DNA from: Ramlibacter sp.
Lineage (GTDB): Bacteria > Pseudomonadota > Gammaproteobacteria > Burkholderiales > Burkholderiaceae_C
Assembly: GCA_019635435.1 (NCBI GenBank)
Contig: JAHBZM010000001.1
Coordinates: forward strand, 2,128,587 to 2,192,586
Direction of reading: 5' to 3'
DNA: 64,000 nt
Position numbers and translations under genes: made by a program
Notes under the pieces: generated by a model
What the model was told of the DNA's origin: nothing
Database searches by the model: none
Seen by the model: only the letters and a program-made list of their open reading frames with translations
In this document: piece after piece, positions 5,501-36,639 of the stretch
Numbering within the stretch: the first letter of the stretch is position 1
Layout of the letters: every line of letters starts with the position of its first letter

Positions 5501-6823
5501 ATGAAACCGATCCAAGTAGGCCTGTTGGGCATTGGCACCGTGGGCAGTGGCACCTTCAATGTGCTCAAGCGCAACCAGGAAGAAATCCGCCGCCGCGCCG
5601 GCCGCGGCATCGAGATCACCATGGTGGCCGACCTGGACACCGCGCGCGCCCAGGCCGTGGTGGGCGACCAGGCCCGGGTGGTCAACGACGCGCGCGCCGT
5701 CATTGCCAACCCTGACATCGACATCGTCATCGAGCTGATCGGCGGCTACGGCATTGCGCGGGCCCTGGTCATGGAGGCCATCGAGGCCGGCAAGCATGTG
5801 GTCACCGCCAACAAGGCGCTGCTGGCCGTGCATGGCACCGAGATTTTTGCCGCCGCGCACCGCAAGGGCGTGATGGTGGCGTTCGAGGCCGCGGTGGCCG
5901 GCGGCATTCCCATCATCAAGGCGCTGCGCGAGGGTCTCACGGCCAACAGCATCGAGTGGATCGCCGGCATCATCAACGGCACCACCAACTTCATCCTGTC
6001 CGAGATGCGCGACAAGGGGCTGGACTTTGGCGTGGTGCTCAAGGAAGCGCAGCGCCTGGGCTATGCCGAGGCCGACCCCACCTTCGACATCGAAGGCGTC
6101 GATGCCGCGCACAAGGTCACGCTCATGAGCGCCATTGCCTTCGGCATCCCGGTGCAGTTTGACAAGGCTTACGTCGAGGGCATCACCCAGCTTGGCGCCG
6201 CCGACATCAAGTACGCCGAGCAGCTGGGTTACCGCATCAAGCTGCTGGGCATCACCAAGCGCGTGGCCACGGGCATTGAACTGCGCGTGCACCCCAGCCT
6301 GGTGCCCACCAAGCGGCTGATCGCCAATGTGGAAGGGGCCATGAACGCCGTGGTGGTGCAGGGCGATGCCGTGGGCACCACGCTGTACTACGGCAAGGGC
6401 GCGGGCTCCGAGCCCACGGCCAGCGCCGTGATTGCCGACCTGGTGGACATCACCCGCCTGCACACGGCCGACGCCGCGCAGCGCGTGCCGCACCTGGCCT
6501 TCCAGCCCGATGCCATGAGCGACGCGCCTGTGCTGCCCATGAGCGAGGTGGTGACCAGCTACTATCTGCGCCTGCGCGTGGCCGACGAGGCCGGCGTGCT
6601 GGCCAAGGTCACGGGCATCCTGGCCGGCGCGGGCATCAGCATCGACGCCGTGCTGCAGCGCGAGGCCGACGAGGTGAGCCAGGCCGGCGAGAACCAGACC
6701 GACCTGATCATCCTCACGCACGACACGCGCGAGGGCACCATGAACGAGGCGCTCGCGCAGATGCAGGCCCTGCCCACCGTGGTGGCGCCGATCACGCGCA
6801 TCCGCAAGGAAGAGCTGGCGTAA
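5501..6823 (+). CDS. hom: homoserine dehydrogenase
   Basis: N-terminal Rossmann motif GxGxVG and a C-terminal ACT domain. Sits in the conserved alaA-hom-thrC arrangement. Confidence 0.9.
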   Translation: MKPIQVGLLGIGTVGSGTFNVLKRNQEEIRRRAGRGIEITMVADLDTARAQAVVGDQARVVNDARAVIANPDIDIVIELIGGYGIARALVMEAIEAGKHVVTANKALLAVHGTEIFAAAHRKGVMVAFEAAVAGGIPIIKALREGLTANSIEWIAGIINGTTNFILSEMRDKGLDFGVVLKEAQRLGYAEADPTFDIEGVDAAHKVTLMSAIAFGIPVQFDKAYVEGITQLGAADIKYAEQLGYRIKLLGITKRVATGIELRVHPSLVPTKRLIANVEGAMNAVVVQGDAVGTTLYYGKGAGSEPTASAVIADLVDITRLHTADAAQRVPHLAFQPDAMSDAPVLPMSEVVTSYYLRLRVADEAGVLAKVTGILAGAGISIDAVLQREADEVSQAGENQTDLIILTHDTREGTMNEALAQMQALPTVVAPITRIRKEELA

Positions 6824-29392: not shown

Positions 29393-29700
29393 TTTGGGGG
29401 TGCTTGCAGTGATCGCGCTGCAAGTCGCTGCGTCATGGCGCGGCGAATTGATCTTTAACAAGTTGCCGCGGGGCAGCGCCGGTACTGGCCGGACGCGAGC
29501 TCCGCAGAAAGAAGTGGATGCCGGTCTCATGCCGGTCATCTGCTCCATTTCGGGTGTGCCTATGCACCACCGTCGCCGCGCTGCCCTGGAGTGGGTGCGA
29601 CGGGATGTGCAGGGTGTCGCTCACCGTTGTGCAGCGAGGCTCACAGGCGGCGTCATGCCGTCTGCTCGCGCGTAGACACAGCCGAAATGGAGAAGCATTC

Positions 29701-29778
29701 GCCCCGTTAGCCCAGTGGAATCAGAGCACTGGCCTACGAACCCAGGGGTCGCACGTTCGAATCGTGCATGGGGCACCA
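29701..29778 (+). tRNA. tRNA-Arg(ACG)-like, with C12-A23 and C31-C39 stem mismatches; CCA encoded
   Basis: Hand-folded cloverleaf. Acceptor GCCCCGT/ATGGGGC, T-arm GCACG-TTCGAAT-CGTGC, anticodon loop CTACGAA identical to that of E. coli tRNA-Arg(ACG), discriminator A. Confidence 0.65.
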
Positions 29779-29785
29779 GATCAAA

Positions 29786-29863
29786 GTCGTGTTCGTCTAG
29801 ATGGCCAAGGACACCTGAATTTCAATCAGGAGATCGCGGGTTCGACTCCCGCACACGACGCCA
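29786..29863 (+). tRNA. tRNA-Glu(TTC); CCA encoded
   Basis: Lies 7 nt after the previous tRNA. Glu-type D-arm GTCTAGATGGCCAAGGAC, anticodon loop ATTTCAA, T-arm GCGGG-TTCGACT-CCCGC, discriminator G. Confidence 0.7.
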
Positions 29864-29954
29864 TCAAGACCAGAGCGAGCCCTCAGTAATGAGAGCTTGC
29901 GGAAACCGGTCGCAAAGATTGGGCGGCACCGGAACCCGTCACCGGAAATTCAGA

Positions 29955-30030
29955 GGTCCGTTAGCTCAGTGGCCAGAGTGGTTCCCTGTCGAGGAACAAG
30001 TCGCGGGTTCGACTCCCGCACGGACCGCCA
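29955..30030 (+). tRNA. tRNA-Asp(GTC); CCA encoded
   Basis: Acceptor GGTCCGT/ACGGACC, D-arm GCTC-AGTGGCCA-GAGT, anticodon stem GTTCC/GGAAC with loop CTGTCGA (G37), T-arm GCGGG-TTCGACT-CCCGC. Confidence 0.7.
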
Positions 30031-30075
30031 ATTCCGAGAACATCAACCAACCCGTTAACTTCCAAGGAGGACGAC

Positions 30076-30249
30076 ATGAAACGGCAACACACCGGCGAAC
30101 AGCCGCAACGCCAACCGGTCGTCGCCTTGGCGAGGAACCGAATGGCTTGGGCCAGGCTCTGGCGCGCCACGAAGCAGTGGCGCCGCCGCATGGTCGAAGC
30201 GGACGATGCCGACCTGGCACAGCGCGTTCGCCTGAGTGGCGAATGGTGA
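30076..30249 (+). CDS. small basic ORF (57 aa) with a strong Shine-Dalgarno, just upstream of the HNH gene
   Basis: AAGGAGG sits 6 nt before the ATG. The peptide MKRQHTGEQPQRQPVVALARNRMAWARLWRATKQWRRRMVEADDADLAQRVRLSGEW is Arg/Trp-rich. It falls below the ORF-track length cut-off. Confidence 0.3.
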   Translation: MKRQHTGEQPQRQPVVALARNRMAWARLWRATKQWRRRMVEADDADLAQRVRLSGEW

Positions 30250-30304
30250 GAGCAATGGTCCACCGTTTGACGAAAAAAAATTTTAGCAACGAAAGGAAAG
30301 CATC

Positions 30305-30868
30305 ATGCAAGCGCATGTCCTGCAACTCGATATCCAGGGAACCCCTCAGGCCTGGATTTCGCTGGAACAGGCCGCGCTGCATTACGCCACCGACGGCGTG
30401 GCGTGGGAAGACGGAGCAGGCCCTCTGGCCACCCTGCGTGGCGGCTGGAGCGTGGCGCGGGGTGTGCAGTCCACGCTGGCGGTGCACCCCATCATCGCCC
30501 TGCGCGGCTCGCCCCGACGCAACCTGTTTGATGTGGTGCCTGGCTTCAGCAAGTCCAAGCTGCTGCGGCGCGACCGTTTCACCTGCGCGTACTGCGCGCG
30601 GGTGTTTGCCGAGCGCGACCTGCAGTGCGAGCACATCCTGCCCGCATCGCGGGGGGGTGCGTGGTCGTGGATGAACCTGGTCACGGCCTGCGCCGCGTGC
30701 AATGGCCGCAAGGCCGACCGCACGCCCGAGGAGGCGGGCATGCCCCTGGTGTACCTGCCCTATGTGCCGACCCGCTTTGAGGATTTTCTTCTGGTGGGCC
30801 GCAACATCCGGGCCGACGTGCACCTGTGGCTGGCCTCTCGCCTGCCCAAAGGATCGCGACTGAACTGA
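30305..30868 (+). CDS. HNH endonuclease
   Basis: HNH motif CAYCARVF...CEHILPASRGG...NLVTACAACNGRK (paired CxxC and a catalytic His). 187 aa. Confidence 0.8.
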   Translation: MQAHVLQLDIQGTPQAWISLEQAALHYATDGVAWEDGAGPLATLRGGWSVARGVQSTLAVHPIIALRGSPRRNLFDVVPGFSKSKLLRRDRFTCAYCARVFAERDLQCEHILPASRGGAWSWMNLVTACAACNGRKADRTPEEAGMPLVYLPYVPTRFEDFLLVGRNIRADVHLWLASRLPKGSRLN

Positions 30869-31022
30869 GGCTGTCCACAGTCAGAGTTCAGCCCACACAT
30901 CTTCCGCAGAAGGCGAACGCTCACAGGAGCGGGGTTGGGGCAAAGGCCCGCCCCGCCGGTGTCATTGCCCGGGCCTGGCCCGTGGGCGGGTGACATGCCG
31001 CACCGCCGGAAACGGTTGATAC

Positions 31023-31076
31023 GGGTGATGTGGGGATACCTCCTCGACGAGCCGGGTTCGACTCCCGGATCACCCA
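31023..31076 (+). ncRNA. truncated tRNA-like element: 7-bp acceptor stem plus canonical T-arm, with D and anticodon arms replaced by one short hairpin (54 nt)
   Basis: GGGTGAT...ATCACCC acceptor pairing; T-arm CCGGG-TTCGACT-CCCGG; discriminator A; no CCA. It abuts the next tRNA, 3 nt away. It could be a tRNA pseudogene remnant or a tRNA-mimic RNA. Confidence 0.4.
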
Positions 31077-31079
31077 CCC

Positions 31080-31152
31080 CATTGGATAGCTCAGTCGGGT
31101 AGAGCAGTCTTTGCATAAAAGACCGGTCACGGGTTCGACTCCCGTTCCAAAG
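31080..31152 (+). tRNA. tRNA-Met/Ile2-like (anticodon CAT) with G33, an A2-A71 mismatch and no encoded CCA
   Basis: Canonical D-arm TAGCTCAGTCGGGTAGAGCA. Anticodon stem GTCTT/AAGAC with loop TGCATAA. T-arm ACGGG-TTCGACT-CCCGT. Confidence 0.55.
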
Positions 31153-31160
31153 CAAACCAG

Positions 31161-31231
31161 GGTCGAAAGACCCGCGCCGCTGCAGTCGCGGGGCAAGCCT
31201 GATCCGACGTTGCCGCCCCGAGCGGCAACGC
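31161..31231 (+). other. three consecutive GC-rich hairpins (GGGTC-GAAA-GACCC; CCGC-N7-GCGG; CGTTGCCGC-N5-GCGGCAACG) immediately 3' of the tRNA array
   Basis: Perfect stems with no U-tract. Possibly RNA processing or stability elements. Confidence 0.4.
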
Positions 31232-31430
31232 AGGACCGGACGAGCCCTGCAACTGCCCTCGGTGGCGGCCGGCGCTGAAACCGCCCGGTCCGCGCCCACG
31301 GCCAGCACAGGCTGCCTTGCCGGGTGGCCTGAGCGCACCGTGACGCCCGGCCCTGTGCCTTCAGCGTTTGCAGCCCCCGTTGCCGCGGCGCACCCCTTCA
31401 TTCACACGCATCCAACACAAGGAGAACACC

Positions 31431-32570
31431 ATGGAATTCAAGCGTGTCAGCATCAAGAAAAACGAGCGCGGCATCCTGCTGCGCAATGGTGACTTTGACC
31501 GCGTGCTGCGGCCCGGCCGTCACCTGCTGTTCAGCGGTCTGGACACGCTGCGCGTGGAAAACTTCGCGCTCGACCAACCCGCATTCGCCCACAGTCTGGC
31601 GGACTACCTCATGGCCAGGGAAGCCGGGGTGGTCGCGGCCGAGTTCGTGCGCGTCGAGCTGGGCGAGACCCAAGCCGGCCTGCGTTCCGAGAACGGCGTG
31701 TTGGTGGAAGTGCTTGCTCCCACCACGCGGCGCCTGTACTGGAAGGGGCTGGTGGACGTGCAGGTGGAGGTGATCGACCTGGTCGCCTCGCCCGAGCTCG
31801 CCCCTGGCACGGTGGCCCGCCTGACGCAGACCCAGCTGCGCCAACGTGGCGTGACCGGCCTGGCCGGTGTGCTGCAGGTGCAGGTGCCCGAACACTCGGT
31901 GGGCGTGCTGACCGTTGACGGCAAGGTGGAACGCCTGCTGGTGCCCGGTGCGTACGCGTTCTGGAAGTTCAACCGCAATGTGGCGGTGGATCTAGTGGAC
32001 ATGCGCCTGCAGTCGCTGGAAGTCACGGGCCAGGAAATCCTGACCCGCGACAAAGTCAGCCTGCGGCTGAACCTGGCGGCCACCTGGCGCTACACCGATG
32101 TGCTCAAGGCCTTCACCCAGCTGCAAAAGCCCGCGGAACACCTGTACCGCGAGCTGCAGTTCGGGCTGCGCGCCGCTGTGGGCACCCGCACGCTGGATGA
32201 GCTGCTGGAGAACAAGACGGTCATCGACGAAGTGGTGACCACCTATGTGCGTGGCCGCCTGTCCGCGTGGGGGCTGGCGCTGGACGGCGTGGGTGTGAAA
32301 GACATCGTGCTGCCCGGCGAGATGAAAACCATCCTGGCCCAGGTGGTCGAGGCGGGCAAGTCGGCGGAAGCCAACGTGATCCGCCGGCGCGAAGAAACCG
32401 CCGCCACGCGTTCCCTGCTCAACACGGCCAAGGTCATGGAGGACAACCCCGTGGCCCTGCGCCTGAAGGAGCTGGAAACGCTGGAGCGTGTGGCCGAGCG
32501 CATCGACAAGATCTCCGTCTTCGGCGGTCTGGACCAGGTGCTCAACGGGCTAGTGAAGCTCAAGCCCTAG
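31431..32570 (+). CDS. SPFH/band-7 (slipin-like) domain protein, no predicted TM segment
   Basis: AAGGAG RBS. SPFH core from about residue 170 (VDLVDMRLQSLEV...). C-terminal coiled-coil-like region. Confidence 0.7.
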   Translation: MEFKRVSIKKNERGILLRNGDFDRVLRPGRHLLFSGLDTLRVENFALDQPAFAHSLADYLMAREAGVVAAEFVRVELGETQAGLRSENGVLVEVLAPTTRRLYWKGLVDVQVEVIDLVASPELAPGTVARLTQTQLRQRGVTGLAGVLQVQVPEHSVGVLTVDGKVERLLVPGAYAFWKFNRNVAVDLVDMRLQSLEVTGQEILTRDKVSLRLNLAATWRYTDVLKAFTQLQKPAEHLYRELQFGLRAAVGTRTLDELLENKTVIDEVVTTYVRGRLSAWGLALDGVGVKDIVLPGEMKTILAQVVEAGKSAEANVIRRREETAATRSLLNTAKVMEDNPVALRLKELETLERVAERIDKISVFGGLDQVLNGLVKLKP

Positions 32571-32621: not shown

Positions 32622-33632
32622 ATGGAAACACAAGAGAAGAAAAAGAAAGTCAAACAGCCGCCCGTGCTGTTTGCCAGGACGCAGGCCGTGATGGCCCAGC
32701 TTGGAGATTGTCTGGGCGGCCCTGTGGTGAGCTACTGGAACAACCCGCGAGGCTCGGTGTGCCAGTCAGACGTGGTGGCGCTGTATGACGTGCTGGCACG
32801 TCTGGGCCGGCACGACACCATGTACCTGTTCATCAAGTCCGACGGGGGCAGCGGCCAGGTGTCGCTGCGCCTGGTCAACCTGCTGCGCCAACACTGCCGC
32901 CAGCTCGTGGCGCTGGTGCCGCTGGAGTGCGCATCGGCCGCGACGATGATTGCGCTGGGCGCGGACCGCATCCTGATGGGGCCTACCGCCTATCTGACGG
33001 CGGTGGACACCTCGCTGAACCATGCGCTGTCGCCTGTGGACCGTGACAACGACCGTGTGAACGTCAGCCTGGATGAACTCAACCGGGTAATCCGGCTGTG
33101 GCGCGACCAGCAGGGCGAGCAGGCCGAGAACGCCTACAAGTCGCTGTTCCAATACGTGCACCCGCTGGTGATCGGCGCCGTTGATCGCGCCGAATCGCTG
33201 TCCATCATGCTGTGCCGCGAGTTGCTGGCCAACCACATCGCCGATGAGGCAGTGGCCGAGCAGATAGCGGCGACGCTGAATGCCAAATACCCGTCGCACA
33301 GCTACCCCATCCTGCTGGATGAGGCCGTCAAGATCGGCCTGAAAGCCGAGCGCATGCCGCAAGAGGTCAACACCCTGTTGCTGCAACTGAACGGCTACTA
33401 CAGTGAAATGGGGCAGAAGGCGACGACCGACTTTGACGAGATCAGGGCCCATGGCAATGAGATCGTCAACATCTGGGAGGCGTCGGGCACGCAGGTGTTC
33501 TACCAACAGGACAAGGACTGGTTCTACCGCGCCGAAGAACGGCGCTGGATCACCATGAACGACAACAGCGGATGGCGCCGCATTGAACGAAACGGCTCAC
33601 GCATCAAGCGCACCTTGCTGCACGTGGCCTGA
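32622..33632 (+). CDS. ClpP/crotonase-fold serine protease (SDH/NfeD/S49-like)
   Basis: Motifs KSDGGSG and ECASAATMIALGAD are typical of Clp-fold serine proteases. This class partners with SPFH proteins. Confidence 0.55.
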   Translation: METQEKKKKVKQPPVLFARTQAVMAQLGDCLGGPVVSYWNNPRGSVCQSDVVALYDVLARLGRHDTMYLFIKSDGGSGQVSLRLVNLLRQHCRQLVALVPLECASAATMIALGADRILMGPTAYLTAVDTSLNHALSPVDRDNDRVNVSLDELNRVIRLWRDQQGEQAENAYKSLFQYVHPLVIGAVDRAESLSIMLCRELLANHIADEAVAEQIAATLNAKYPSHSYPILLDEAVKIGLKAERMPQEVNTLLLQLNGYYSEMGQKATTDFDEIRAHGNEIVNIWEASGTQVFYQQDKDWFYRAEERRWITMNDNSGWRRIERNGSRIKRTLLHVA

Positions 33633-33664: not shown

Positions 33665-34885
33665 ATGAAAGAAACCAACTACATCGAAGAGCAAACCCCC
33701 GGCGGCGTGCCCATCAAGATGTGGACGCGCGGCGTGCCGGTGGAAGACGAGGCCCGACGCCAGCTCAGCAACGCGGCGCGGCTGCCCATTGTGTTCAGGC
33801 ACGTGGCCGCCATGCCTGATGTGCACTTTGGCATCGGGGCCACTGTGGGCTCGGTCATTCCCACCTTCCGCGCCATCATCCCCGCGGCGGTGGGGGTGGA
33901 CATTGGCTGCGGCATGATCGCCAGCAAAACCACGCTGACGGCTGAAGACCTGCCCGACAACCTGGGGCCGCTGCGCTCGGCCATCGAGCGAGCCGTGCCG
34001 CATGGCCGCGCACCCGGTGCGCGCGACCCCGGCGCCTGGCACAAGGTGCCAGGGTCGGTGGACACCGCCTGGGCCCAACTGGAGCCCGAGTTCACCGAGC
34101 TTTGCCGTGACTACCCCAAGCTGCGCAAGACCAACAACCACAACCACCTGGGCACCCTGGGCACGGGTAACCACTTCATTGAGGTCTGCCTGGACGAGCA
34201 GGGCGCGGTTTGGTTCATGCTGCACTCGGGCTCACGCGGCGTGGGCAATGCCATTGGCACCATGTTCATCGAACTGGCCAGGCAGGACGCCATGCGCAAC
34301 AACGTGAACCTGCCTGACCGTGACCTGGCGTACTTTGAAGAAGGCTCGCGCTACTTTGGCGACTACGTGCGGGCCGTGGGCTGGGGCCAGAAGTTTGCGC
34401 GCCTGAACCGTGAGGTGATGATGCGCCGCGTGATCGAGGCGGCCAAGACCGTGATCCGCAAGAACTTCCAGAGCCACATCGAGGCGGTCAACTGCCACCA
34501 CAACTATGTGCAACGGGAACGCCACTTTGGGGAAGATGTTTACGTGACCCGCAAGGGCGCCGTGAGCGCCCAGGCGGGTGAACTGGGCATCATCCCCGGC
34601 AGCATGGGCGCGCGCAGCTACATCGTGCGTGGCAAGGGCAACCCCGAAAGCTTCGCCTCGTGTTCGCACGGGGCAGGGCGCACCATGAGCCGTGGCGAAG
34701 CCAAGCGCCGGTTCACGCTGGCCGACCACCGCGCCGCCACCGAAGGCGTTGAATGCCGCAAGGACAAGGACGTGATTGACGAAACGCCCGCGGCCTACAA
34801 GGACATTGACGCCGTGATGGCGGCGCAGCAAGACCTGGTGGACGTGGTGCACACGCTCAAGCAGGTGGTGTGCGTGAAAGGGTGA
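33665..34885 (+). CDS. rtcB: RNA-splicing ligase RtcB (3'-phosphate/5'-hydroxyl RNA ligase)
   Basis: 406 aa. Conserved RtcB metal and GTP-binding His residues (DVHFG, GNHF, HNH region). Confidence 0.85.
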   Translation: MKETNYIEEQTPGGVPIKMWTRGVPVEDEARRQLSNAARLPIVFRHVAAMPDVHFGIGATVGSVIPTFRAIIPAAVGVDIGCGMIASKTTLTAEDLPDNLGPLRSAIERAVPHGRAPGARDPGAWHKVPGSVDTAWAQLEPEFTELCRDYPKLRKTNNHNHLGTLGTGNHFIEVCLDEQGAVWFMLHSGSRGVGNAIGTMFIELARQDAMRNNVNLPDRDLAYFEEGSRYFGDYVRAVGWGQKFARLNREVMMRRVIEAAKTVIRKNFQSHIEAVNCHHNYVQRERHFGEDVYVTRKGAVSAQAGELGIIPGSMGARSYIVRGKGNPESFASCSHGAGRTMSRGEAKRRFTLADHRAATEGVECRKDKDVIDETPAAYKDIDAVMAAQQDLVDVVHTLKQVVCVKG

Positions 34886-34902: not shown

Positions 34903-34930
34903 GCCGACCCGAAAGGGTCGGCTTTTTTTT
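34903..34930 (+). terminator. intrinsic terminator after rtcB (GCCGACCC-GAAA-GGGTCGGC followed by T8)
   Basis: Perfect 8-bp stem, GNRA tetraloop and a TTTTTTTT run. Confidence 0.8.
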
Positions 34931-35015
34931 GGTCGCAGGGTGGTCTACCCTTGCTTCAACGCCGTCAGATCAATCGCAATCGTCATGCGCGAGTCAGCCA
35001 GATCGTCGGCCATCG

Positions 35016-35408
35016 TCATGGTGCAGGGGGCCACGGCCCCGGGACGGTCACGGCTTCGTCAGGGCCAGGCCAGGGCGGCATGGTGATGGCCACCGCAGAT
35101 ACCCCCTCCGTAGCCGCGGCCCGAAACTGGAAGTGCGTACCCAGTGGAATGGTCAGGCAAACACCCGGTTCGAGCACCACAGTTTCTTCACGCTCGCCCT
35201 GCTTGCGCCACATCTCGCCACGCCCGGCCACCACAAACCAGATCTCTTCCACCGTGCGGTGCGTCACGGCCTGGGCCACCTGGCCGGCGCGCAGCGTGAA
35301 ATGCGCCATGCCGCCTCCCTGCAAGCCCAGCAGGATGCGCACATCCGAGCCATCGGGTGCCACCACTGTCGCGACGGCGGGGAGAGGCATGGTATTGAAC
35401 GCGGTCAT
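35016..35408 (-). CDS. cupin-domain protein
   Basis: 130-aa small-barrel cupin_2-like sequence. Confidence 0.5.
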   Translation of the reverse strand: MTAFNTMPLPAVATVVAPDGSDVRILLGLQGGGMAHFTLRAGQVAQAVTHRTVEEIWFVVAGRGEMWRKQGEREETVVLEPGVCLTIPLGTHFQFRAAATEGVSAVAITMPPWPGPDEAVTVPGPWPPAP

Positions 35409-35596
35409 GGTTGGGCGCTACCAGTTACAAACTCCATCAGATCGGCAGACAGAATGACGGGCACTTGCGGAAAGTACCCGGACTGGTTCGGCTGTGCCGT
35501 GAGCGCACAAATGTTTTTGGAATACATGCATCCTCCGCTGTTTGAATAGTGGTTCAAATTCTGCCGCATAACGTCTCCAGGCTGCTGCTCCACAAC

Positions 35597-35645: not shown

Positions 35646-36104
35646 TCAAGGCGCGCGCCCCGGCGCCACCATGGCCGTGGCCAGCGCCAGGCCGGGCGCC
35701 GTGGGGTGGGCCGTGTCCACCAGAACGCCTTCTGCAAAGCTGAAATTTCTGGCCGGGCGGACCACATGGGCCCGGAAGGCGAGTGAATCGCTGGCGCTCG
35801 CCAGCGACAGGAACTTGACGGAGAGTTCCAGCGTGACGACCACCTCACTGTCGTAGTGCCCCAAGCCGGCGAGCACGAAGGCCGCGTCAAAACCCGCGGA
35901 GATGACTCCCCCATTGAGCGCCGTCGTGCCGCCACCGCCCAGCGGGCCAGGGGCCAGCCCTGACAGGGTGACAACCGCGGTGCCGGGTTCCTCGAACGCA
36001 CCCTTGAAGCCGAACCACAAGACCTCTTTGCGCGCGTTGAACTGCAGCAGTTGCTGTGCGCGCCTTTCAGGCGACAGGCGAAAAGCGGCCGAAGGAAGTT
36101 GCAT
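35646..36104 (-). CDS. hotdog-fold thioesterase superfamily protein
   Basis: Start taken at the internal Met (MQLPSAAF). PaaI-like hotdog sequence. Confidence 0.55.
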   Translation of the reverse strand: MQLPSAAFRLSPERRAQQLLQFNARKEVLWFGFKGAFEEPGTAVVTLSGLAPGPLGGGGTTALNGGVISAGFDAAFVLAGLGHYDSEVVVTLELSVKFLSLASASDSLAFRAHVVRPARNFSFAEGVLVDTAHPTAPGLALATAMVAPGRAP

Positions 36105-36132
36105 GGCAGTACCGTCCTCAATCAAGCGGGGC

Positions 36133-36639
36133 TCAACCCAGCAGCGCAGGGTTGAGCTGCCAGGTGGCGAGCGTGAGTGCCGACGCGAACGACACCCATG
36201 CCAGGTAGGGCAGCAGCAGCATGGCCGCCAGCCTGCTGACGCGCCAGAACAGGCCGATGGTGAGGGCGATCAGCACCCACAGCAGAACAATCTCTGCCAA
36301 CGCCAGCCCGCCTTGCCGCCAGACGAAAAAGAGCCAGGTCCACAGCGCATTGGCCGCCAGCTGGAGCATGAACACCAGCAGCGCGTTGCGTGCGCCCGCA
36401 AAACCGCGCGCGCGCCAGACCAGCCAGGCCGAGATGCCCATCAACGCATACAGAGCCGACCAGACCGGCGCAAACAGCCAGCCCGGGGGCGCCCAGGCGG
36501 GGCGAATCAGGTCGCGGTAGAAATCACCCGCGTTGGCCGATGCCAGACCGCCCACCGCGGCCGCGGCAAAAGCGACGGCCAGCCAGCCGATCAGGCCCAG
36601 GGTTTGGCGTGCGGGTGACCTGGCAGGGCGTTGAGTCAT
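36133..36639 (-). CDS. tspO: TspO/MBR-family tryptophan-rich sensory protein
   Basis: 168 aa, five TM segments, Trp-rich. Confidence 0.8.
   Translation of the reverse strand: MTQRPARSPARQTLGLIGWLAVAFAAAAVGGLASANAGDFYRDLIRPAWAPPGWLFAPVWSALYALMGISAWLVWRARGFAGARNALLVFMLQLAANALWTWLFFVWRQGGLALAEIVLLWVLIALTIGLFWRVSRLAAMLLLPYLAWVSFASALTLATWQLNPALLG

Follow-up and report, generated by a model that had tools for sequence, protein, structure and literature searches.

A 54-nt RNA element encoded upstream of a Band-7/SPFH gene in Ramlibacter sp. retains the acceptor stem and T arm of a tRNA, with the remainder of the molecule reduced to two tiny hairpins. Comparative sequence analysis of this mini element (hereafter the mini) indicates that it is a real and evolutionarily conserved miniature tRNA mimic, beyond what is expected by chance, and establishes its structure, its conservation, its genomic coupling to Band-7 and its lack of decoding capacity. 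It is followed directly by a full-size tRNA-like gene of the b7a-tRNA type; the pair always precedes the Band-7 gene, and the comparison of loci further indicates that the two RNAs behave as one unit. All coordinates refer to the 64,000-nt stretch of DNA analysed here, which we call the window.

The mini element and its locus

The mini lies on the + strand at 31023–31076 and reads GGGTGAT GTGGGGATAC CTCCTCGACGAG CCGGG TTCGACT CCCGG ATCACCC A. As originally predicted, GGGTGAT and ATCACCC form a 7-bp acceptor helix, here with seven Watson-Crick pairs, CCGGG-TTCGACT-CCCGG forms a perfect T arm, and the element sits 3 nt upstream of the next tRNA-like gene (Table 1). The stretch of 22 nt that separates the 5' acceptor strand from the T stem agrees in length with the approximately 20 nt that had been described, but comparative analysis resolves it into two mini-hairpins rather than the single short hairpin proposed at the time. 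Position 3:70 is G3-C70 in the window, and a G:U pair is found there in only four of 56 copies.

Table 1. Positions of the RNA elements and operon genes in the window.
Feature	Position	Strand	Details
Three canonical CCA-encoding tRNA genes (Arg-ACG, Glu-TTC, Asp-GTC)	29701–30030	+	
HNH endonuclease	30305–30868	+	Pfam HNH_5
Possible sigma-54-type promoter	30827–30846	+	TGGCTGGCCTCTCGCCTGCC; GG/GC 12 nt apart; inside HNH 3' end
Structured leader	30897–31022	+	GCTCACAGG block; hairpin; P2 helix; small GAAA-capped hairpin; GAT; 57-locus alignment
Mini acceptor helix	31023–31029/31069–31075	+	7 Watson-Crick pairs
Mini D-like hairpin	31030–31032/31037–31039 (whole 31030–31039)	+	3 bp; loop GGGA
Mini anticodon-like hairpin	31040–31042/31049–31051 (whole 31040–31051)	+	3 bp
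Mini T arm	31052–31056/31064–31068 (whole 31052–31068)	+	5-bp stem; canonical loop TTCGACT
Mini discriminator	31076	+	A
Degenerate 3' CCA and linker to next module	31077–31079	+	CCC
b7a-type tRNA-like RNA	31080–31153	+	ARAGORN tRNA-Met(cat); Rfam tRNA model 42.6 bits
Rest of 5' UTR	31154–31430	+	Several conserved blocks (alignment of downstream regions)
GGTC-GAAA-GACC hairpin	31160–31173	+	Conserved
Shine-Dalgarno AGGAG	31420–31424	+	In conserved 5' UTR
Band-7/SPFH (slipin), cytoplasmic type	31431–32570	+	Pfam Band_7, 3.1e-29
ClpP-like SDH/NfeD-type serine protease	32622–33632	+	Pfam SDH_protease, NfeD1b_N; NCBIfam Clp_like_SDH
RtcB RNA ligase	33665–34885	+	Pfam RtcB, 6.8e-128

Standard annotation tools pass over the element. 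Rfam reports nothing at the mini at gathering thresholds, and the Rfam tRNA model (RF00005, gathering 29 bits) gives no match at 31023–31076 even when 2 kb are searched with a cut-off of E<=10; ARAGORN does not call the mini and finds no tmRNA here. The anticodon arm is a stub of 3–4 bp closed by a tetraloop or a 6-nt loop, is absent in some homologues, and does not have the canonical 7-nt loop. Folding of single sequences was tried on the 54-mer and on the mini together with its neighbour. The minimum free energy (MFE) structures are alternative ones, that of the isolated 54-mer having −25.8 kcal/mol against −20.6 kcal/mol for the cloverleaf-like fold, and the z-scores are weak (−2.26 for the 54-mer and −0.81 for the pair). 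Such folding is uninformative alone for either RNA.

The Band-7 start codon lies 355 nt downstream of the mini on the same strand, with RtcB further downstream; the rtcB gene is thus where it had been placed, 2.6 kb from the mini and in the same orientation. We take the Band-7/SPFH gene directly downstream, which the original prediction had missed, to encode the relevant protein partner. In related loci the tRNA array upstream of the RNA pair contains from one to 13 tRNAs, the HNH gene between array and pair is syntenic in about 50 loci, and the gene for the ClpP-like protease is present in only part of them. Among the roughly 35 window ORFs scanned with Pfam there is no Rsr/TROVE match and RtcR was not found. 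Relatives of the Band-7 protein were not found in viral contigs, and PADLOC matched none of the proteins of the locus except for a generic HNH domain. An AlphaFold model of Band-7 (mean pLDDT 41.6, from a shallow alignment of 13 sequences) was unusable.

Similar gene sets are known from cyanobacteria, where long tRNA arrays linked to HNH and rtcB were described in 2021 (PMC8421152) and where the Anabaena TrcR regulon consists of a tRNA array, HNH, rtcB and a slipin (PMC10272220); the tRNA array, HNH and RtcB are co-induced by translational stress in Anabaena (PMC8421152, PMC10272220). In its entirety the locus has the appearance of a module for responding to translational damage.

The interval of ~560 nt between HNH and Band-7 is conserved end to end, with the mini and the b7a-tRNA embedded within it. 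In the leader ahead of the mini, CCGG and TGTCA (30956–30964) pair with TGACA (30991–30995) followed, after a TG bulge, by CCGC (30998–31001). This P2 helix covaries, being TGTCA/TGACA in the window and TGCGC/GCGCA or TGGGC/GTCCA elsewhere, and the leader motif recurs in Burkholderia, E. coli, Photobacterium, Subdoligranulum and Bacteroidota-like loci. A long-range pairing of leader CCGGTGCGC with downstream GCGCACCGCGG was considered and dropped, because TGTCA in the window leader covaries with the local TGACA and not with the downstream block.

A promoter scan of 29400–31500 found no sigma-70 consensus, and the terminator-like matches in the same interval are tRNA arms, or the GAAA hairpin in the wrong orientation. 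The segment at 30827–30846 may be a sigma-54-like promoter, albeit a weak one in the window; it aligns with clear sigma-54 promoters of relatives. In Acidovorax loci a sigma-54 promoter (CTGGCACGCATCTGGCAAT) stands ahead of the leader and a divergent rtcR adjoins it, and the corresponding promoters are TGGCACGCTTCTCGCA in E. coli and GGCACGCTCCTCGCT in B. cenocepacia.

Conservation of the two-module RNA

The comparison set comprised 80 genome loci, mostly Burkholderiales, with Band-7 proteins at 74–85% identity; this protein is highly conserved, with >80% identity among the best 120 matches. The mini is found at the same site upstream of Band-7 in about 75 of 78 related Burkholderiales loci. 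Where the sequence reaches far enough upstream, nearly every locus has two T arms, 64–79 nt apart and 260–450 nt upstream of Band-7, the first belonging to a 54-mer-like element and the second to a full-size tRNA-like gene. A mixed-length MAFFT alignment (A2) was dropped when its acceptor strands proved mis-registered, and an ungapped seed of 14 copies (A3) was taken instead to build a covariance model, R1. The model scores 77.1 bits on the window mini and matches the element where expected in 70 loci as well as in the window, with scores of 56–66 bits for the copies in these loci outside the seed and of 56–75 bits over all relatives not in the seed; about five further diverged copies (L028, L034, L038, L043, L068) were found by manual inspection. 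Two loci, L031 and L079, are without a mini, and their leader passes directly into the tRNA-like gene.

Pairing holds in 94.1% of cells of a 59-sequence alignment, a figure inflated by the fitting of that alignment to R1, against 65.4% in shuffles and 30–54% when partners are slid. The same alignment has changes on both sides in 18 of the 19 mini pairs and a covariation score of 0.662 as opposed to 0.163, although the strong copies all come from one order (Burkholderiales and close transfers) and sequence relatedness inflates the counts. Because of the model fitting, RNAalifold was run on the ungapped MAFFT seed, whose alignment is not fitted to R1; it returned the same four helices with compensatory changes in 13 of 17 pairs, which mitigates the inflation. 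The original prediction had left room for an element with no conservation in related islands, and the loci compared here contradict this.

The consensus is a four-helix mini-cloverleaf with zero linker nucleotides. The acceptor stem has 6–7 bp. The D-like hairpin has ~3 bp and a loop of 3–5 nt in which GG is always present, and the anticodon-like hairpin has 3–7 bp and is mostly GNRA-capped, with a 6-nt loop in the subgroup to which the window belongs. In the T arm GGTTCGAnTCC is invariant. An encoded N-CCA follows in 47 of 59 copies, the window copy having CCC. The conserved features (GGTTCGAnTCC, the GG of the D-like loop and N-CCA), as judged from these alignments, are exactly the tertiary and end features of a tRNA. 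The anticodon-like hairpin is missing from the minis of Caenimonas koreensis, Ottowia and B. cenocepacia; it is dispensable, and the selected features are therefore the acceptor/T-arm stack, the elbow of D-loop and T-loop, and the 3' end.

The second element was originally described as a CAT tRNA. Its position stands, but a decoding role does not, as its homologues carry arbitrary anticodons or tetraloops; the comparison identifies this 'tRNA-Met(CAT)' as a non-decoding tRNA-like RNA, b7a-tRNA. In the window it has canonical D and T arms, an anticodon stem extendable to 6 bp around a loop of 5 nt, an acceptor with an A2:A71 mismatch, and a 3' end of GCAA, not GCCA. Across loci the D arm (TAGCTCAG...GAGC), variable region and T arm stay canonical. 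The ARAGORN identity changes by locus among Val, Lys, Thr, Met, Ile, Phe, Glu, Ala, Asn, Leu, Cys, Gly and Pro, and in Acidovorax and Burkholderia the anticodon arm is capped by a GAAA or GCAA tetraloop. The acceptor is mostly 3–5 bp long and begins 0–2 nt past the CCA of the mini; many copies have their own N-CCA directly 3' of this short stem. In the two mini-less loci the acceptor of the b7a-tRNA is 6–7 bp.

More distant Band-7 loci were recovered by tblastn against plasmid and chromid records and by a pattern scan of metagenomes. The scan returned mostly ordinary tight tRNA pairs and YrlA-type RNAs, the informative loci being L113, L127 and a few two-module Band-7 loci. B. cenocepacia (Band-7 at 66% identity) has a 49-nt mini and a b7a-tRNA; metagenome locus L127 (55% identity) has a mini without the anticodon-like hairpin, plus a b7a-tRNA. 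At 39–52% identity, Photobacterium and loci L088, L089 and L092 carry two full-size tRNA-like genes in tandem, of which the first combines a 7-bp acceptor with an abnormal anticodon loop of 4–6 nt and the second has a truncated acceptor. In Bacteroidota-like loci (28–35% identity) both of the two tandem modules are circularly permuted, running from T arm through a closed hairpin to D arm, and E. coli, with a slipin and a nucleotidyltransferase, has one permuted, YrlA-like module and RtcB not adjacent. The theme common to these loci is tRNA-like modules, usually two, directly ahead of Band-7 across phyla. Since distant lineages also carry two modules before Band-7, the mini is the reduced, Burkholderiales-type form of module 1.

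Possible processing and function

On balance we think it probable, reasoning largely by analogy, that the mini is cut out as a tRNA 'top half' of ~55 nt ending in CCA and serves, with the b7a-tRNA, as an RNA partner of the Band-7/RtcB module. The mini keeps the top half of a tRNA, with the acceptor stacked on the T arm and an elbow formed by the T loop and the GG-bearing D-like loop, and its anticodon arm has shrunk to a capped stub. It is module 1, and the b7a-tRNA at 31080–31153 module 2, of a two-module tRNA-like RNA, both lying in the long leader of the Band-7/protease/RtcB operon and predicted to be co-transcribed with it; the operon promoter in relatives is predicted to be sigma-54/RtcR-dependent and stress-inducible. 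RNase P may cleave immediately 5' of both modules, and its cleavage between mini and b7a-tRNA would release the 3' end of the mini, with N-CCA in most relatives; the window copy with its CCC would need trimming and a CCA-adding enzyme. The product would be a stable ~55-nt RNA. The two tRNA-shaped RNAs could then partner a Band-7 oligomer as Y RNA/YrlA does Ro60, and their tRNA-like surfaces might offer docking sites to RtcB and to further proteins that handle tRNA, or engage nucleases that target tRNA, to which they would be uncleavable in lacking an anticodon loop.

RNase P and the CCA enzyme are known to act on minihelices, and the vertebrate mascRNA is cut out by RNase P and RNase Z and then receives CCA. 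We infer RNase P and CCA processing of the mini from these analogies; stability as a separate RNA and the molecular role are likewise proposed by analogy. Whether RNase P would use the acceptor stem of 3–5 bp in the b7a-tRNA is uncertain.

Several observations run against this overall reading: CCC in place of CCA in the window, the GCAA end of the b7a-tRNA, the alternative MFE structure, no RtcR among the ORFs scanned, and the weak sigma-54 site.

The mini might instead act purely in cis, as RNase P 'punctuation' that trims the leader and sets the 5' end or the translation of the Band-7 mRNA, the excised mini being functionless. It does lie inside a ~560-nt leader that is conserved throughout and must have cis roles, L031 and L079 manage without it, and its CCA is not strictly conserved. 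However, RNase P cleavage alone does not need the elbow (D-like GG and T loop) or the N-CCA, both of which are selected; two modules are kept beside Band-7 in very different layouts across phyla, and the permuted versions with closed acceptor hairpins cannot serve as RNase P punctuation. We consider a purely cis role unlikely. It is also quite improbable that the mini is a free decoy, or sponge, for tRNA-targeting ribonucleases that acts independently of Band-7 and cannot be cut for want of an anticodon loop. Most anticodon nucleases read the anticodon loop, which the mini does not have, and the RNA strictly adjoins Band-7 in all lineages, including those without an adjacent RtcB (the E. coli slipin and nucleotidyltransferase), which argues for a specific protein partner. 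A decoy would accord with an anticodon arm that is a tetraloop stub or deleted while the features of the body are retained, with the linkage of the locus to spare-tRNA arrays, HNH and RtcB, a set co-induced by translational stress in Anabaena (PMC8421152, PMC10272220), and with the same proposal for YrlA, whose tRNA-like domain was suggested to inhibit an anticodon nuclease competitively, being itself uncleavable (PMC7790460). We prefer a role as Band-7 partner over a free decoy because all lineages keep the RNA tied to Band-7.

The original prediction had offered a choice between a tRNA pseudogene fragment and a tRNA mimic, with Y-RNA-like RNAs as the example of the latter. A decaying pseudogene, or a functionless internal-deletion copy of the adjacent tRNA gene, would account for the 15-nt T-arm segment that is identical between the mini and its neighbour in this window, for the lack of CCA here, and for the failure of ARAGORN and the Rfam tRNA model to detect the element. 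This is contradicted by about 75 loci that have a correspondingly placed mini whose four helices all show compensatory changes and whose loops vary in length, and by the finding that the T stems of the mini and its neighbour differ in other loci; the covariation leads us to reject a pseudogene, which we regard as very improbable. The tRNA-mimic option fares better: conservation and covariation point to a tRNA mimic linked to rtcB, but not to one of the YrlA/Y-RNA family. Membership of that family, with binding to Ro60 (Rsr), can be given hardly any credence. It would fit the RtcB neighbourhood, shared with YrlA, and a weak, partial match to the YrlA model (RF02553) at 31052–31105 (model positions 31–81), but this match scores 22.4 bits, far under the gathering threshold of 69, and arises from the T arm of the mini and the D arm of the next element. 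The model grazes the window here because a T arm followed ~20 nt on by a D arm reproduces the YrlA layout, whereas these are two separate elements. The mini itself has normal topology with open acceptor ends, is not permuted around a closed hairpin, in which it differs from true permuted modules, and has no Ro-binding stem, and there is no rsr among the roughly 35 window ORFs scanned.

Beyond the proposed role as Band-7 partner in this operon, we hold more tentatively that the mini represents a bacterial class of minimal (~48–64 nt) tRNA mimics of normal topology, analogous to mascRNA, that are obligatory partners of the b7a-tRNA, and that Band-7/RtcB systems use a pair of tRNA-shaped RNAs, with two elbows and two CCA ends between them, cut from a large leader RNA of several domains that is conserved across phyla. 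Bacterial RtcB systems are widespread, with few of their substrates and cofactors known. If the leader does yield a tRNA-shaped pair of which one member has shrunk to 54 nt, the surface under selection would be the acceptor, T arm and elbow, not the anticodon, and small synthetic RNAs could serve in binding and competition assays and in structural studies with Band-7, RtcB, RNase P and tRNA-directed toxins. A covariance model could annotate such elements, which at present either go undetected or are wrongly called tRNA genes, with arbitrary anticodons.

Relationship to known tRNA-like RNAs

The mini is absent from Rfam 15, and the searchable literature, in which the 2016 paper on the b7a-tRNA is represented through a citing paper, yielded no description of it; literature searches found no later work on tRNA-like RNAs of Band-7/RtcB systems. 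The Rfam scan gave only sub-threshold matches at the mini, the YrlA match noted above and the best one, to mascRNA-menRNA (RF01684), which is full-length at 29.6 bits, below the gathering threshold of 42.5 (E=0.0019 in 2 kb). mascRNA and MEN-beta share with the mini a near-identical size and architecture (a 7-bp acceptor, two tiny hairpins and a T arm with linkerless junctions), although they derive from the 3' end of vertebrate nuclear lncRNAs and the mini from a bacterial mRNA 5' leader. We regard the resemblance as analogy and not homology. The tRNA-like domain of tmRNA is similarly built, with an acceptor, T arm, reduced D loop and CCA end but no anticodon arm; the mini differs in having no mRNA-like domain and, in the window, no G3:U70 alanine identity pair.

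The cyanobacterial tRNA arrays and the TrcR regulon resemble this island in their spare tRNAs, HNH, RtcB, slipin and connection with translational stress, but the tRNAs in those papers are canonical and no miniature tRNA-like RNA is described in them (PMC8421152, PMC10272220).

The closest parallel is the b7a-tRNA of Burroughs and Aravind (NAR 2016) which, as represented in a citing preprint (bioRxiv 10.1101/312249), was put forward as the RNA cognate to Band-7 in RtcB systems, is strongly like authentic tRNA, is seen as functionally equivalent to YrlA, a Y RNA, and was still unvalidated in 2018. The Pelobacter 'mutant tRNA' Pcar_R0061 sits between rtcR and stomatin-rtcA-rtcB (PMC3543383). Like these RNAs, as far as the citing account describes them, the mini is a non-decoding, RtcB-linked tRNA-like RNA in the same transcript leader upstream of a Band-7/stomatin gene, and adjoins Band-7 in an RtcB neighbourhood. 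By that account, however, the b7a-tRNA is full-size, with an authentic full cloverleaf such as 31080–31153 possesses, whereas the mini has no proper D stem or anticodon arm and is a separate upstream module with its own acceptor stem and CCA.

YrlA, finally, is also a tRNA mimic that keeps the acceptor/T/D elbow and has no decoding anticodon, and it too belongs to RtcB operons under RtcR/sigma-54. It is permuted (T arm, closed acceptor hairpin, D arm), its ends form the Ro60-binding stem and its partner is Rsr; it is found in rsr-yrlBA-rtcBA operons, whereas the protein neighbour of the mini is Band-7. The mini, in contrast, has the normal topology of a tRNA with free 5' and 3' ends and CCA, and its acceptor ends covary. 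Taken with the comparative evidence, these likenesses and differences place the mini as a miniaturised variant among the tRNA-like RNAs of RtcB repair operons.

A conserved interval between the HNH and Band-7 genes

Sequence conservation spans the entire interval between the HNH endonuclease gene and the Band-7 gene, approximately 560 nt, including the segments that flank the RNA pair (30897-31022 and 31154-31430). In the leader, a helix pair containing a TG bulge covaries among the loci compared and is found again in proteobacterial, Firmicutes and Bacteroidota-like loci, and the downstream part of the interval contains several conserved blocks, represented in relatives by, for example, AACCGGTCGAAAGACCA and CTGTAACGGCACC. 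Judged from these sequences, the interval looks like a single large multi-domain RNA that has no Rfam entry.

The second element of the RNA pair is labeled tRNA-Met(cat) by ARAGORN, but is a non-decoding Band-7-associated (b7a-type) tRNA-like RNA. Its homologues have an acceptor stem of 3-5 bp and either an arbitrary anticodon or a tetraloop in place of one. Genome annotations of Band-7 loci with such RNAs probably include spurious tRNA genes of many specificities.

The covariance model of the first, 54-nt element of the pair also matches a metagenome locus (L135, 533-582; 36.8 bits), the matched sequence ending in GGACCCGGGTTCGATTCCCGGCATCTCCA. This match looks like the tRNA-like domain found at the 3' end of a tmRNA, and the model thus also picks up other acceptor/T-arm mimics.

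Features of the window
Feature	Position	Strand	Remark
96-nt 'tRNA-Ile(gat)'	6392-6487	-	ARAGORN call
Canonical CCA-encoding tRNA genes (n=3)	29701-30030	+	array
HNH endonuclease gene	30305-30868	+	conserved
Sigma-54-like promoter motif	30827-30846		within final codons of HNH gene
b7a-type tRNA-like RNA	31080-31153	+	ARAGORN call: tRNA-Met(cat)
ORF 3' of rtcB	34929-35549	same as rtcB	
ORF 3' of rtcB	35902-36618	same as rtcB	

The two ORFs 3' of rtcB have no matches in Pfam, NCBIfam or PADLOC. The ARAGORN tRNA-Ile(gat) has no support from Rfam and is probably a false positive, since it falls within long ORFs on both strands.

Permuted tRNA-like modules in distant loci

Five distant, Bacteroidota-like Band-7 loci from metagenomes (L114, L118, L123, L136 and L124) contain two tandem circularly permuted tRNA-like modules, in which a T arm, a closed hairpin and a D arm follow one another and are then repeated. 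Their occurrence suggests that Band-7-associated RNAs generally require two tRNA 'elbows'.

In some strains of E. coli, for example STEC639 (L081; CP061233.1, 3680-3860), a slipin gene and a nucleotidyltransferase gene stand together as an insert between lysC and the DUF3811 gene. The insert has a sigma-54 promoter and, as its leader, a permuted tRNA-like RNA of YrlA-like form; RtcB is not adjacent to it.

The region upstream of the RNA pair

The RNA pair is preceded by the canonical tRNA array and then the HNH gene, with the array varying in size and reaching up to 13 genes in the upstream regions of relatives (L001-L080). In Acidovorax-type loci, a divergent rtcR takes the place of both array and HNH gene. 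A Pfam scan of roughly 35 ORFs of the window found no RtcR; the sigma-54-like motif can be aligned to bona fide sigma-54 promoters in RtcR-linked relatives. The combination of tRNA array and HNH gene is similar to what has been described in cyanobacteria, where long tRNA arrays are accompanied by HNH and rtcB.
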